DNA of 46,410 bases from a virus (taxonomy: Duplodnaviria; Caudoviricetes), in the IMG/VR virus record IMGVR_UViG_3300010376_000055, positions 1 to 46,410 of that record; one strand, 5' to 3'. The position numbers and the translations under genes are program-made. Below the pieces are notes generated by a model that was given only the letters and a program-made list of their open reading frames with translations, did not search any database and had not been told where the DNA came from. Of this stretch, positions 3,748 through 41,141 are shown one piece after another. Positions within the stretch are counted from its first letter, which is position 1; every line of letters begins with the position of its first letter.

Positions 3748-3822
3748 TGGTTCCGGGGGCGGGACTCGAACCCGCGACCTGAGAGTTATGAGCCCTCCGC
3801 GCTGCCACTGCGCTACCCCGGT
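3748..3822 (-). tRNA. tRNA-Met(CAT), initiator (fMet)-like
   Basis: Full cloverleaf ACCGGGG TA GCGC AGTGGCA GCGC G GAGGG CTCATAA CTCTC AGGTC GCGGG TTCGAGT CCCGC CCCCGGA A CCA; A1xA72 mismatch, A73, GGG at 29-31, encoded CCA. Confidence 0.92.
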
Positions 3823-11373: not shown

Positions 11374-11648
11374 GCTGGGGGAAGGATTGGGGTCGCGTCA
11401 GGCGGCCCCTTTTCTTCGTTAAGGATCACAAGTGAGATTTCGTGAAGCTGGTGAGCAACTACTGCAGACCACAATGCCTCGTCTCTGGGCATCAGATCCA
11501 GCGGTATCTCTAGCTCAACTTTGATGTTCAACTTCCGCTTTGGGTAGATCGTTACAGACGGTCCGACGTGACCCTCAATGCCGTTGGGTTGTCTGTATCT
11601 AATGTGAAAGCGGTTGAATGCCTCCATACGTCTAGCGGACATTCTCAT
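11370..11648 (-). CDS. Hypothetical protein
   Basis: 92 aa ORF, ATGA-coupled to the DUF5131 gene. Confidence 0.55.
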   Translation of the reverse strand: MRMSARRMEAFNRFHIRYRQPNGIEGHVGPSVTIYPKRKLNIKVELEIPLDLMPRDEALWSAVVAHQLHEISLVILNEEKGPPDATPILPPA

Positions 11649-12394
11649 TGTTCACCTGCCGGGAACTGGTGAATCAAGAGATCGGCCGGAATGAGCTTCT
11701 TCCCGGCATTCGGAGTCAATCCCCCGAACTGCTTCATGAAGAACGGTATGTTTAACTCCTGGCACTCGGCCAACAGGTCACGAGCCCACTTCTCTTCCAT
11801 CGGCCTACGACCGTGTCCGCTCTCCCCTCCGAAGATGATCCAGTCGGGACGCATGGAGAGGTTGCGCATCGTAACCGGTCCGAGAGCTGGCTCGTAGCTT
11901 ACCCAGAACTTCAGCCCTCTTTCCATGGCGTCTGCGGCGACGATTGGCAAGCGGATGTCGTAGAACTTCTGATCCTCGCACGTTGTCCCCAGCCACACGT
12001 TGTCGAATACAAACGACTTGGGAAGATACCGGTGATACCGCTGAGGCCGCTTCGTGAGAAGCTGCCACGTCAGGCAGGGAGTCTCGAAGATCAACTGCCA
12101 CAGACGCTCTCGCGCCCCTTCCGGAGCTTCGTCGTCCATGATGTCGCACATCGATCCACAGAACACCCTATGCTGCTTACCGGTCTTCGAAGCCTCGTGG
12201 TTCCACTTCCGCGGTTCCTCCCAGTGCTTGAGTCCGAACGTCCTGCGAGGCGCTCCCTTGCCCCAGTGATCGCCGCCGACCCGCTTGTCGAATGTCTCCG
12301 CGTAGCAGTTGTCGCAGCCTGGGGACACTTTCGTACAACCCCACCAGGGGTTCCATGTACTATCAGTCCACGCTATCCCTGTGTTTTTACCCAC
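11645..12394 (-). CDS. Phage Gp37/Gp68 (DUF5131) radical-SAM-like protein
   Basis: IAWTDSTWNPWWGCTKVSPGCDNCYAE, LLTKRP, WIIFGGESG, FFMKQFG. Confidence 0.93.
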   Translation of the reverse strand: MGKNTGIAWTDSTWNPWWGCTKVSPGCDNCYAETFDKRVGGDHWGKGAPRRTFGLKHWEEPRKWNHEASKTGKQHRVFCGSMCDIMDDEAPEGARERLWQLIFETPCLTWQLLTKRPQRYHRYLPKSFVFDNVWLGTTCEDQKFYDIRLPIVAADAMERGLKFWVSYEPALGPVTMRNLSMRPDWIIFGGESGHGRRPMEEKWARDLLAECQELNIPFFMKQFGGLTPNAGKKLIPADLLIHQFPAGEQ

Positions 12395-12830
12395 GGTCGT
12401 GAATCTCCCTTTGATGGTGATAGTTGCAGAGAGTCACACCATTATCGACGTCGAATCGCAACTCTGGAAATTCAGCGTAACTCTTACAATGGTGAGCCTC
12501 AAGATTCCCGCCTCCGGTATATACGGTGCAGATCAGGCAGGTGAATGCATCGCGACTAAAAACCGCCAATCTCCAAGCTCTATACTCCGGCGTTCCACGG
12601 TCTCCCTGTCTCTTAACCTTTGTTCCACCCTTCCACGCATAATGAGACTCCCCTCTCTGCGTGGCCGACTTTGTCCTTTCGCTGATAATGGACCTAGTAT
12701 CAGCAGAGTGCCTTAGTCCGAGTCTGCTTCCCGGTAACCCGAGTTCGCGACGAAGAGCCCAGCCTGCGCGCATTCTAGCCTTTGCCTCGTCGGACATTTT
12801 CGAACCTTTTAACATGCGGTATCCGTCCAA
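12387..12830 (-). CDS. HNH endonuclease with NUMOD3-like N-terminus
   Basis: HSADTRSIISE, HYAWKGG, WRLAVFSRDAFTCLIC..LEAHH...RFDVDNGVTLCNYHH. Confidence 0.88.
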   Translation of the reverse strand: MDGYRMLKGSKMSDEAKARMRAGWALRRELGLPGSRLGLRHSADTRSIISERTKSATQRGESHYAWKGGTKVKRQGDRGTPEYRAWRLAVFSRDAFTCLICTVYTGGGNLEAHHCKSYAEFPELRFDVDNGVTLCNYHHQREIHDRG

Positions 12831-12845
12831 CTGATTCCTGTCGTC

Positions 12846-13049
12846 TCACCCATTTTTCACCTTCCTCAATGCGCGCCGGTATGCTTCACGGACTGCGTAG
12901 TTGTGGGTTTCGCTGGTCATGCCAATCGAGCCTTCCACGTCGAAAGCAAGGAGATCGTACAGCTCGGCGTCGTTGGCCTCTTCGGCCTCCGGAGGCATCT
13001 CCTTGACGTCCGTAACCGGAATGCCTTCGTAGCGGATTAGCTTCGTCAC
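12846..13049 (-). CDS. Hypothetical protein
   Basis: GTGA-coupled ORF with GAGG SD. Confidence 0.5.
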   Translation of the reverse strand: MTKLIRYEGIPVTDVKEMPPEAEEANDAELYDLLAFDVEGSIGMTSETHNYAVREAYRRALRKVKNG

Positions 13050-13300
13050 TGTTGCCTCGGGTCTACCCACCGGTTAACCGGCAAGGGGGTTGCGCACAGC
13101 ATCTCGATGTACGCCGCTCCCCGCTCGGTACATTCCCAGTCGTTCGGTCGAGCCTGATCCCGTGGTGCCTTGCATCGCAACAGTTCCAAGTATTCCAGCC
13201 GATCAAGTTCGCCCTCAGACACATCCGCACGAGCACTTGGAATCGCATAGAAAGAAATCAGCGACAAAATATCACCCGGCGTTACCACTCTCTCACTCAT
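13046..13300 (-). CDS. Hypothetical (winged-helix-like) protein, leaderless
   Basis: TTGGCA-17-TACTCT-6 nt-ATG; LEYLELL...WECTERG. Confidence 0.55.
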   Translation of the reverse strand: MSERVVTPGDILSLISFYAIPSARADVSEGELDRLEYLELLRCKAPRDQARPNDWECTERGAAYIEMLCATPLPVNRWVDPRQQ

Positions 13301-13359
13301 GTTGGCAGAGTACACCTGATTTGCAACAATGCCAAGTTGGTCCAAATTTTGGAGTATTC

Positions 13360-13750
13360 AGCCATAGGGACGGCCTTCCCTCGGGGATCTACCCCTAGAG
13401 TGGCCCTGAATTCTTAGTGTGTCTTACAGCTTCTTAAACCAGAGAGAGACTTAGTCTTTGAAAGAGGGGTTCTACGCCCTCATCCCCATGGGACCAGGAC
13501 GCAGCCGTCTGTGATGGGATCAACTACCCACTCGTTGCCTGGAATTTCGTCTCGTCTCAGCTTTATCGGTGCCAATGCCCGTAAGCTGTGAACCTCAAGC
13601 GGACCGTTGTTTTTCGGTAATGGAGTTCCGCGAACCAACCGTCTTGCCTCCGAAGGCAGGAATAGACACACGTTAGCGCGTCACTCGGAAGACGGGATGA
13701 TGTGCGTGATCTAACACGCTGCAAAATCCGTTCTCCCAGATTCCGTGACT
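13360..13750 (-). ncRNA. Candidate ~390-nt structured non-coding RNA
   Basis: TTGTCG-17-TATTCT promoter (13784-13756); no credible ORF; many hairpins (TGCCT-TCGG-AGGCA, CAGCTT/AAGCTG, CCAGG/CCTGG, GTTAG/CTAAC); 3' end uncertain. Confidence 0.5.
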
Positions 13751-13811
13751 TGCGCAGAATAAATCGTCAGATTTAATCCGACAATAGCAAAATGTGGACT
13801 ATAATTTTTTT

Positions 13812-13912
13812 GTGGGCGGCCCCGCCTACGCGCGCTGCTCCGGACCCGGGTTCCGTGACAAGTTCCCTTCCTGAGAGCCCGCCCACAAATCCCCGCGAAA
13901 GCGGGGTTTTTT
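13812..13912 (+). ncRNA. Candidate ~100-nt small RNA
   Basis: TATAAT at 13800-13805; closing stem GTGGGCGG/CCGCCCAC; terminator CCCCGC-GAAA-GCGGGG-TTTTTT. Confidence 0.65.
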
Positions 13913-14795
13913 ATTGCTCGGCCATTTGCAGGTTGGGATCCTCGATCGCTTCCAGAAACATATTCGATATGCGGACTCCGAACTCGTAGCGGGCTTGGAA
14001 GTATTTCGCGAGCCCTGGATTCCTTCCCTCGCCGTCCTTCGAATATGCGAAGCTGAGCGTCTTGAACAGGGGATACAGCAGGAACGGATCGGGGATCAGG
14101 AACCCGTCCCCCAGTCCCATCTTGCCTGGCTGGCGCTGCTGGTACACGAGCTCGATCGGCGTCGTGTTGTTCGCCCTCGGCCAAATCCCGAACTGGAGCA
14201 AGCCGGTCTTGTCGCGGAAGTACACCTTGGGCCCTACGGCGGCCTTCAGTTGCCAGCGGTAGTCCGTCATGTCGAGATTGGCCTGAGACGTTTCCCTCAG
14301 CGGGTAGTTGTTCACGGCCATGCGCTCCGGAACCATGCAGTCTGAGGGCAGATTGCCGTTCTGCGCAGTCGGCAGCACGGTGATATCCGCGATGTTGTAA
14401 ACCAGAGGGCAGGCCGTAAGGAAGTCGTTTACGGCCGTAGACAGGTATGTCAGCATTTCATCCTGAGTGAATATCTGGTCCTGATTGGCCCGGTAGGGGA
14501 ACGTGGCGCCGACGATCGGTTCGCCGGCTGGATGCGCGTTCACGAAAACAGCGGTGAACGAGGTCCCTGGAACCACAGCCGTAATCGTGACCACTTCAAG
14601 AGTGCTTACCGTGGTTCCCACGCAAAGCTGCGCGCCCACGTACATCGCTTCATCCCAAACCGGAACAGTCTGCGAACCGACTCCGATGCCGCCCACAGGA
14701 ACCGACTGGTTCACCGGATTCTGAATCAGCTTGTAGCTGGCATCCGTCAGGAGATCGTTTGCGATCAGGAATCCGACACCTTGAACGACTGGCAT
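13911..14795 (-). CDS. Head-tail adaptor / tail tubular A-like protein
   Basis: FTQDEMLTYLSTAVNDF, LPSDC, GPKVYF...FGIWP, IPDPF...AYSKDGE; leaderless-type start. Confidence 0.65.
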   Translation of the reverse strand: MPVVQGVGFLIANDLLTDASYKLIQNPVNQSVPVGGIGVGSQTVPVWDEAMYVGAQLCVGTTVSTLEVVTITAVVPGTSFTAVFVNAHPAGEPIVGATFPYRANQDQIFTQDEMLTYLSTAVNDFLTACPLVYNIADITVLPTAQNGNLPSDCMVPERMAVNNYPLRETSQANLDMTDYRWQLKAAVGPKVYFRDKTGLLQFGIWPRANNTTPIELVYQQRQPGKMGLGDGFLIPDPFLLYPLFKTLSFAYSKDGEGRNPGLAKYFQARYEFGVRISNMFLEAIEDPNLQMAEQ

Positions 14796-31707: not shown

Positions 31708-32238
31708 TTAGCTCGCTATCTCGAGACCGGTAGACTTATTCAGTCTTTCGATCTCCAGCTTCATCGCATGACGCTTGGCAATTTCCGCATCAGTGAGAGG
31801 CATCTGAATGATTCTGCCTCGCCCGTCCCTCACTCTAATCTCTCGAGATAGCTTGAGAGACATGAACGAGAGTCCAACTTCAGCCTGCGCCTTTTTCATG
31901 ATCATGTACGGTAGGCAAGCTTTCAAAAGTGTTTCTGCCATCCGCTCATTCATCTGCCAGCGCATAATTGGCTTCTTCCCGAGATGTTTTGATTTCTCGT
32001 ATTTGACGTAGTACACGCTTCCGTCAAACGTGGATTTAAGCCAATTCATCAGTCGATGGTCCGTGTTGGATATAACGACCGACAGTCTGTACTGAGGCGT
32101 TTTATGCCTCCCGTGCAATCCCGTCGCCACGTTGATGTAGATTGTGCCTTCACCGTCGATGTACGCAGCGAGCCGGGCCTTATCGATCTCCGATACGGCA
32201 TCGATCATTGCTGCATAATCTTTGCGAGTGACTGGCAA
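31708..32238 (-). mobile_element. Single-motif LAGLIDADG homing endonuclease gene between scaffold and capsid
   Basis: RLAAYIDGEGTI, VVISNTD, LPYMIMKKAQA; TTG start with GGAGAGG SD; lower GC than neighbours. Confidence 0.88.
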
Positions 32239-40379: not shown

Positions 40380-40600
40380 GGGATCACTACCGGGGAACCG
40401 TCTGTGCGTACGCCCTTCATCTCGCCGTTCAGGTAGACGTTGGTCTCGATCCGGTAAGAGCAGCCGGTCTCAGCGTTGGTGCATGAGTACTCGAGATGCG
40501 TCACCCCGCGTTTGTTCTTGATGATTTTGGGTTTCAAAACGGTTCCGCACTTCTGACAGATTACGGGGCTTGCTATCAATGGAGCGTGGTCTGGAAACAT
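40376..40600 (-). CDS. Small Zn-finger protein
   Basis: CQKC...CTNAETGC; GGAGGAG SD; overlaps the 3' extension of the deformylase frame. Confidence 0.65.
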   Translation of the reverse strand: MFPDHAPLIASPVICQKCGTVLKPKIIKNKRGVTHLEYSCTNAETGCSYRIETNVYLNGEMKGVRTDGSPVVIP

Positions 40601-41141
40601 CGTTCTCCTCCGCGCGAGCTTGCCTCGCGGTTTTCCAATCGTTGAACTTGGTCAGCACTTCTCGTCGTCTCCTGTCCGGAATGCGATCGATGAAGAACGT
40701 TCCGTTCAGGTGATCGATTTCGTGCTGCATGATGCGCGCCGACATCAGCCGGAACGTGTAGGGCTTTTTCTTGTCTGGGAATTCAAGCGAAGCGGCTTCA
40801 AGGTCTACGTACTCTAATCGGGGAACCATGCAGAGATTACCGGCTGGGGGGATACTCAGGCATGCCTCTAAGCCGTCAATCTCTTTTCCGTACAGCCGGG
40901 TGATCTCCGGGTTGATTAGGGTTATGACCGATTCATCGTCAAGCTGGGCCATGACCACCTGCTTGAAGATACCGATCTGGGGAGCCGCAAGCCCTACTCC
41001 TCCGAACTGGCGTATCGTCTCGAACATTCGAATCGCCAACTCCGGCAAGCTATCGTACTCCCAAGGCATAACTGGTTCAGATACCACATTGATCATGGCT
41101 GGCCCGTATATGAGAACCGTGGCCCTAACTGGTACTTCCAT
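40470..41141 (-). CDS. def: Peptide deformylase
   Basis: All three motifs present: GVGLAAPQIG, EACLS, QHEIDHLNG. Confidence 0.93.
   Translation of the reverse strand: MEVPVRATVLIYGPAMINVVSEPVMPWEYDSLPELAIRMFETIRQFGGVGLAAPQIGIFKQVVMAQLDDESVITLINPEITRLYGKEIDGLEACLSIPPAGNLCMVPRLEYVDLEAASLEFPDKKKPYTFRLMSARIMQHEIDHLNGTFFIDRIPDRRRREVLTKFNDWKTARQARAEENDVSRPRSIDSKPRNLSEVRNRFETQNHQEQTRGDASRVLMHQR

Follow-up and report, generated by a model that had tools for sequence, protein, structure and literature searches.

We found that the main feature of the locus studied here, which the earlier note had missed, is a predicted long RNA that belongs to an uncatalogued, widespread and highly constrained family. 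It is encoded divergently from a small RNA that very probably acts on it in trans as an antisense regulator, whatever the long RNA does. Our best explanation, which we hold tentatively, is that the long RNA could be an RNA-primed or RNA-activated origin of replication with a trans-encoded, RNA I-like inhibitor. Comparison of sequences shows the family and how it folds, the divergent arrangement of the two genes, and changes in the small RNA that match those in its target; that the two are transcribed, pair in the cell and prime or inhibit replication through an RNA-DNA hybrid is inferred.

The window, that is, the whole 46,410-nt stretch of DNA that was analyzed, is part of a tailed phage with portal, terminase and major head protein genes and a CheckV completeness of 48%. 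Its features are listed below by window position, and two DNA runs compared with the locus showed no variants.

13911–14795, minus strand: upstream neighbor, a virion structural gene, used as the query for finding related phages.
13812–13912, plus strand: predicted small antisense RNA gene (~100 nt), a stem plus terminator, a design that recurs in seven other loci.
13891–13912, plus strand: terminator hairpin (13891–13906) and T run of the small RNA, from the terminator scan.
13830–13859, plus strand: antisense segment of the small RNA, from cofolding and duplex scoring.
13778–13805, plus strand: promoter-like site of the small RNA (−35 box 13778–13783, −10 box 13800–13805, 16-nt spacer; 10/12 consensus matches).
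13756–13784, minus strand: promoter-like site of the long RNA (−35 box 13779–13784, −10 box 13756–13761, 17-nt spacer; 8/12 consensus matches).
13360–13749, minus strand: predicted long structured non-coding RNA (~390 nt), with an uncertain 3' end and conserved features that stop near 13369.
13714–13749, minus strand: stretch to which the small RNA is predicted to pair, namely the initial ~35 nt of the long RNA, within its unconserved leader.
13599–13641, minus strand: subfamily-specific 5' domain, a predicted pseudoknot, from the alignment.
13565–13583, minus strand: conserved subfamily hairpin, read from the alignment and uncounted.
13442–13558, minus strand: helix enclosing the core (13549–13558 with 13442–13450), seen by eye and uncounted.
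13490–13548, minus strand: family core, from covariation over the core alignment.
13369–13382, minus strand: purine run and 3' strand of the long-range helix, pairing with 13503–13509 and resembling a ribosome-binding site.
13340–13354, no strand assigned: palindrome just past the long RNA, with four copies in the window.
11645–13303, minus strand: downstream neighbors, namely two small ORFs without a family assignment, an HNH endonuclease (12387–12830) and DUF5131 (11645–12394).
40470–41141, 31708–32238 and 3748–3822: respectively, peptide deformylase, a LAGLIDADG/HNH-type gene adjoining the major head gene, and tRNA-Met, also carried by the window.

As a single query, the upstream protein found no viral loci, and an alignment of its relatives succeeded, leading to one other phage (L065/L066/L083) with a stretch 70% identical to the locus (E 2e-11). 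Patterns of shared motifs gave 15 and 61 viral loci and then 120 more from an estimated ~160 stretches, overlapping the earlier sets, and a pattern search of GTDB gave 88 stretches. The patterns matched 189 distinct strings, of which a structure filter retained 126; another 29 were brought in by hand, for a total of 155 distinct cores. Family members occur both in phages and in integrated elements, chiefly those of Acidobacteriota and Planctomycetota. By record title, the 56 GTDB members divide into 21 Acidobacteriota, 29 Planctomycetota and 6 others, and the RNA is present as one copy per genome in the 10 genomes checked. Neither the long nor the small RNA had a match in Rfam, apart from a sub-threshold ctRNA match on a terminator; the models without a match included hammerhead, HDV-like, twister, group I/II, RNase P, GOLLD, ROOL, OLE, and HEARO. 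A phage collection and a plasmid collection (PLSDB) likewise gave no sequence match. We found no description of the family in the literature searched, which did not extend to the alignment archives and PDFs of PMC10690425, where it could be listed; its loop motif is absent from the searched supplements of PMC2864571 (one in part) and from the readable tables of PMC10690425. Two other papers, PMC10520033 and PMC10085705, were set aside as not relevant in the portions available. Likenesses to hammerhead blocks, HDV, group I, RNase P, and glutamine-II, considered by eye from consensus features, were rejected on helix order.

The core of the long RNA is built of a 5-bp helix (13538–13542 with 13494–13498), a 2-bp helix, and a 5-bp hairpin with an 8-nt loop (13519–13526), two bases of which take part in covarying tertiary pairs. 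In an alignment of 78 cores, pairing holds in 99.2% of cells, and 167 cells show a change in both partners, as compared to 35.9 in shuffles (0/500). One core helix pair is A-U in 39 cores and G-C in the other 39, the first tertiary pair, between a loop base and a distant base, is A-U in 70, G-C in 8 and broken in none, and the second is G-C in 52, C-G in 14, G-U in 7 and broken in 5. While the invariant letters of the core were partly imposed by the search patterns, the covarying letters were not. In the window's subfamily, represented by 18 full-length members, 19 of 30 pairs change on both sides; in the long-range helix, which forms a pseudoknot and spans ~130 nt in the window, all 7 of 7 pairs do so. 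Within the 5' domain, pairing of 13628–13631 with 13599–13602 covaries, and pairing of 13636–13639 with 13606–13609 is conserved with no covariation. A conserved motif at 13450–13455 adjoins the core-enclosing helix, as seen by eye.

Several features beyond the 3' end were recorded alongside this fold. A 22-codon ORF on the minus strand (13297–13365) begins immediately beyond the long-range helix, overlapping the beginning of the gene that follows, and no conservation was seen in it. The HNH, DUF5131 and small ORF neighbors are not kept beside the RNA in other loci. The palindrome (13–15 bp, intergenic) recurs in the window at 1768, 13341, 26094, and 37431 and in many loci between L064 and L114, including relatives without the RNA, and is probably a repressor or other protein site unrelated to the RNA.

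The small RNA gene and its target are separate divergent genes that do not overlap and lie 59 nt apart. The earlier note had proposed, from a gapped direct repeat, back-to-back promoters and a plus-strand RNA of ~100 nt with closing stem and terminator, that two RNAs pair in trans from the 5' end of the minus RNA, and the observations behind it were confirmed. Both repeat copies (13715–13749 and 13831–13859) are present with exactly three A-to-G differences within the paired blocks, and a repeat search returned the 15-nt block (13735–13749 and 13845–13859) at 87% identity. The plus RNA has an 11-bp closing stem (13809–13819 with 13879–13889) and a folding z-score of −3.8. Both promoter-like sites are in the sequence as described. 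That of the plus RNA passed the consensus scan; the minus promoter-like site fell under the scan threshold and went unlisted, its support coming instead from related loci, in which the −35 and −10 boxes are equally spaced from the repeat; from this site, the predicted start of the long RNA is 13749. In the cofold that the note had suggested as a check, the plus RNA and the first 45–100 nt of the minus RNA are predicted to form helices of 15, 4, and 9 bp with a net gain of 8–20 kcal/mol, amounting to 28 bp with four G-U pairs. The duplex scored −51.8 kcal/mol against −27.1 ± 3.7 for shuffled targets (0/2000 as good), and in a contig-wide search the best non-self partner of the antisense segment was this target (−50.0), with the next unrelated site at −41.0.

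Related loci point in the same direction. The layout of L066 matches that of the window, with terminator, small divergent gene, promoters and long RNA in place, and its repeat has another sequence in both copies, with one wobble pair. Picked by eye, the small RNA was seen in 7 of 27 other subfamily loci (L065, L120, L132, L263, L294, L396, and L331, the last being the weakest case). There it is an element of 58–81 nt, usually with a closing stem of 9–13 bp (weak in L065), situated 14–61 nt from a target that begins 4–7 nt after the −10 box. In an 8 × 8 cross-comparison of loci chosen by eye, the cognate duplex was best in 7/8 rows and 6/8 columns, and the net cofold gain averaged −8.3 kcal/mol for cognate pairs versus −2.0 kcal/mol, with nil gain for three of the eight cognate pairs (L294, L396, and L331). 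A pattern of the literal repeat had 63 viral matches, none of them homologous, indicating that the sequence of the repeat is not conserved, and two generic self-alignment screens had no power, as the window itself did not exceed the null. Antisense and target sequences change together, with complementarity kept across related loci. Given this retained complementarity and the cognate specificity, the two-RNA switch suggested by the earlier note is supported, and the covariation that it had asked for is strong in the long RNA and is accompanied by the matched antisense and target changes. Candidates for a tandem, same-strand antisense gene noted by eye in L298 and L229 failed a shuffle test (500 shuffles). 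Same-strand inverted complements of the 5' region of the long RNA also lie upstream of the core in L203 and L313 (0 and 5 of 500 shuffles, respectively), and could represent either an antisense gene in tandem or an extended cis hairpin, the latter perhaps sufficing for L203.

Genome context provided the lead to replication. A related SF2 helicase was found in 80 loci, and the RNA core lies downstream of it in 25 of them. Among 28 more distant helicase loci inspected, the first or second ORF is a zinc-finger/Toprim primase-like gene in 15, and L488, from this distant set, has the RNA in place of the primase-like gene; in 14 loci of the close clade, a different non-coding element occupies the slot. 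A primase of alignment A6 was found neither in 11 helicase-RNA genomes nor in 7 genomes picked for lacking the core; where tested, an A6-type primase is absent whether the helicase slot is filled by the RNA or by the second element. No RNA core was found in 35 control genomes, including 10 distant-helicase genomes. Where tested, primase, RNA and second element are mutually exclusive in the slot. Given that the helicase-RNA genomes are mostly one clade, a quick tree indicates that this exchange rests on about two events. The second element (L442–L446, L455, L456, L458, L460, L461, L464, L472, L474, and L475) is ~300 nt long with many hairpins, lies ~370–700 nt after the SF2 helicase and a PD-(D/E)XK gene, had no Rfam match in the loci scanned, and is a candidate second class of origin RNA. 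In L465, ~370–640 nt past the helicase, the 5' part of the RNA is kept and the core pattern is missing, which marks this locus as either a third variant or a degenerate one.

In 11 of 21 phages, mostly near-complete, the RNA is no more than 10% of genome length away from the GC-skew minimum, and in 8 of 21 no more than 5%; for the maximum, the 10% count is 5 of 21. For the minimum, the expectation from other gaps or small ORFs was 5.0–5.6 of 21 (P 0.002–0.008), and seven records in this set were without their last 0.5–2.5 kb. The RNA is near strand switches in 12 of these 21 phages, and after gene-strand correction the count was 6/21, which is not significant (p 0.23). A primase was present in 4 of 27 near-complete carriers. 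Pfam primases were found in 2/27 carriers versus 8/22 controls (p 0.03), the controls being unmatched and the contrast weaker once A6 is counted. Family A polymerase was not rarer in carriers (7/49) than in controls (5/37), an insensitive family search with phrog_678 gave 2/49, and searches for Toprim_3 and DnaB added little.

In bacterial genomes, copies of the RNA sit in small integrated elements, some of them satellite-like. Within 3 kb of the RNA, an integrase or resolvase was present at 14 of 29 loci, capsid or terminase genes at 4 of 29, and a replication-type domain at only 2 of 29 (103 of 146 ORFs scanned). Taken together, the exchange in the helicase slot, the skew minimum and these small integrated elements, mostly with no replication gene recognized within 3 kb, point to replication. 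Six small integrated elements of Planctomycetota (L321, L339, L346, L377, L388, and L391) carry a gene for a 360–510-aa ParB-domain protein directly upstream of the RNA, along with an integrase and sometimes a capsid gene, and possibly represent an undescribed satellite type. Elsewhere, short genes just downstream of the RNA (L193:2773–3051 and L149:1625–2053) match the C-terminal part only of replication-initiator families and apparently lack the DNA-binding N-terminus.

In the lineage of the window, the RNA would probably be an accessory second origin. The window's closest relative, G006, encodes DnaB and a homolog of an O-like initiator at a distance of ~43 kb from the RNA, which there lies far from the skew minimum (0.41). 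The RNA is absent from all three relatives that are at least 90% complete, and no replication gene was clearly swapped for it among them; no recognized Rep protein was found in the window, a record 48% complete. Along with these relatives, the origin reading is opposed by the carriers that have a primase, the family A polymerase counts, the strand-corrected skew, the small number of exchange events, the loci with nil cofold gain, the many members without an antisense gene, and the lack of an overlap like that of RNA I with its primer.

According to the origin model, both RNAs would be transcribed from the back-to-back sigma-70-type promoters, and the nascent long RNA would fold, stay hybridized to its template and be extended by host enzymes, as is ColE1 RNA II. 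By pairing with the 5' end of the long RNA during transcription, the small RNA would block priming, and the outcome could be copy control, silencing when integrated, or exclusion of like elements. It is also conceivable, and in our view distinctly unlikely, that the invariant core with its double pseudoknot has catalytic activity or itself brings in the host replisome, the RNA gene replacing the primase gene; in that event, the family would be a third, independently evolved group of RNA-started replicons, braked by a trans-encoded RNA and spread over phages, satellites and integrative elements.

The strongest competitor, which we consider rather unlikely, is that the long RNA is a trans-acting RNA or ribozyme whose role lies outside replication, be it catalysis, binding of a protein or ligand, or toxicity, and that it is silenced by pairing with the small RNA and RNase III cleavage, in the manner of a type I antitoxin. 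The invariant unpaired bases and tertiary pairs of the compact core would suit such a role, with the invariance partly imposed by the search, as would the accessory presence of the RNA among relatives and its varying gene context with no dedicated partner protein (no neighbor cluster covers more than 11 of 133 loci, for ORFs of at least 45 aa), and the divergent layout with ~20 nt of complementarity matches the portion of the tisB/istR-1 account available to us (PMC4147584). However, this reading leaves the helicase-slot exchange and the skew minimum unexplained, known ribozymes are unmatched, and the antitoxin-like partner is missing in most members. Alternatively, the long RNA could be a cis-acting leader of the operon behind it that hides a ribosome-binding site within the long-range helix or directs antitermination and is flipped by the small RNA in a C4/CI-like way, which is unlikely. 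Consistent with a leader, a conserved purine run (13375–13382) lies just before a start codon at 13365, the terminator scan found no terminator 3' of the long RNA, and crude ORF calling over 122 loci placed the first downstream ORF on the strand of the RNA in 78, at most 80 nt away in 31. By the same crude calls, this ORF is convergent in the other 44 of 122 (with named genes at G009, L151, and L156), the downstream genes have no common family, and blocking the 5' end gave no consistent shift of the predicted fold in a model without pseudoknots, all of which argues against a leader.

The two remaining alternatives concern the small RNA and the repeat. The bipartite structured RNA raised by the earlier note, in which the two RNAs would be halves of one molecule like two-piece tmRNA or tracrRNA/crRNA, could draw on the stable predicted 28-bp duplex beginning at the predicted +1, yet it has become highly improbable: the duplex lies in the unconserved leader, varies from ~13 to 28 bp among loci, and seems to be replaced by a cis hairpin in L149 (by eye). 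A blind pairing screen found no family-wide enrichment at z ≤ −3 (7/153 loci versus 4/132 control windows) and left the antisense gene undetectable in most members, with a modest excess within the 28-locus subfamily (4/28, the window included, versus 4/132 controls, p 0.03). Given that most members are without the small RNA, which appears to be a co-evolving add-on of one subfamily, it fits a regulator rather than a structural half. That the repeats are protein-binding DNA sites flanking divergent promoters, or a chance duplication, is scarcely credible. Here the G-U wobbles have to be considered, which the earlier note had taken as a sign of selection on the duplex: they are present, but their polarity favors the proposed strands in just 5/8 loci, A-C mismatches occur in L120 and L132, and in 7/8 loci, folding of the small element is equally good or better for the opposite strand. 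Against DNA sites, the sequence of the repeat is wholly different between loci, yet both copies change together; the gap lengths of the copies differ; one copy is always inside the closing stem and the other 4–7 nt past the −10 box; and in the window, L065 and L263, the T-run terminators are oriented for antisense transcription.

If the origin reading holds, phages and satellites would carry a third family of RNA-started replicons, one that can trade places with a primase gene and has as its brake an RNA from a separate gene. Such a family would explain how some phages with no recognizable initiator or primase replicate, and could offer vector origins for Acidobacteriota and Planctomycetota. 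Even if that reading fails, the long RNA represents a new and widespread class of RNA under strong constraint, with a core that resembles a ribozyme and a partner in trans that co-evolves with it. Given that Lacipirellula limnantheis, Bythopirellula polymerisocia, and Tundrisphaera lichenicola are cultured carriers, the family is testable.

RNase P matures C4 and CI antisense RNAs from a precursor, and the transcripts that they target are read from the same strand. Similar to P1 C4 and P4 CI, which the earlier note had named as analogues, the small RNA described here is a small phage RNA with a long closing stem and predicted trans action through short complementary blocks; in contrast, its target is a divergent transcript, and it has no Rfam match, the Rfam family in question being RF01695 (listed in PMC2864571). 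The long RNA resembles GOLLD, ROOL, and OLE in being a large, pseudoknotted, uncharacterized bacterial or phage RNA, and differs, as far as the available part of their description goes (PMC12286853), in its smaller size, the lack of an Rfam match and the antisense partner in one subfamily. In the type I toxin-antitoxin system tisB/istR-1, as the accessible sections of PMC4147584 describe it, a divergent small RNA is complementary over ~20 nt to a long and structured 5' portion of its target, well away from any start codon. While the divergent small RNA and limited complementarity to a long 5' region are shared, clustering of ORFs of at least 45 aa found no conserved small toxin ORF, the downstream ORFs differ, and the long RNA is conserved as a structure rather than as a message.

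Closer parallels are found among replication origins. In Ceduovirus (phage c2), three unrelated origin types share one slot, and a non-coding PE1 transcript arises from an early promoter, according to the part of PMC7150918 available to us. Here, too, alternatives occupy one slot, namely primase, this RNA and the second element; the hosts differ, an antisense partner is not mentioned in that part of the Ceduovirus account, and the likeness is one of description rather than direct comparison. Two RNA-started replicon families were known in 2010, when the marine RNA-based (MRB) plasmids were described, both with an overlapping antisense RNA (PMC3035462, in the portion available). Like ColE1 RNA II/RNA I and the MRB replicons, as that portion presents them, the locus combines an RNA of several hundred bases with a small RNA complementary to its 5' end, has no protein gene, and has cognate-specific pairing among relatives, which is predicted here. 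In those systems, RNA I is the opposite strand of the same DNA and fully complementary, as far as that account extends, whereas here the antisense gene is separate and its complementarity is gapped and includes wobbles; moreover, the carriers here are phages and integrated elements rather than small plasmids. The locus would thus work like the ColE1 and MRB replicons and is placed like the Ceduovirus origins, but with a non-overlapping antisense gene and no sequence or model match it belongs, by these comparisons, to neither group. Of the analogues put forward by the earlier note, ColE1 RNA I/RNA II nevertheless fits the context best.
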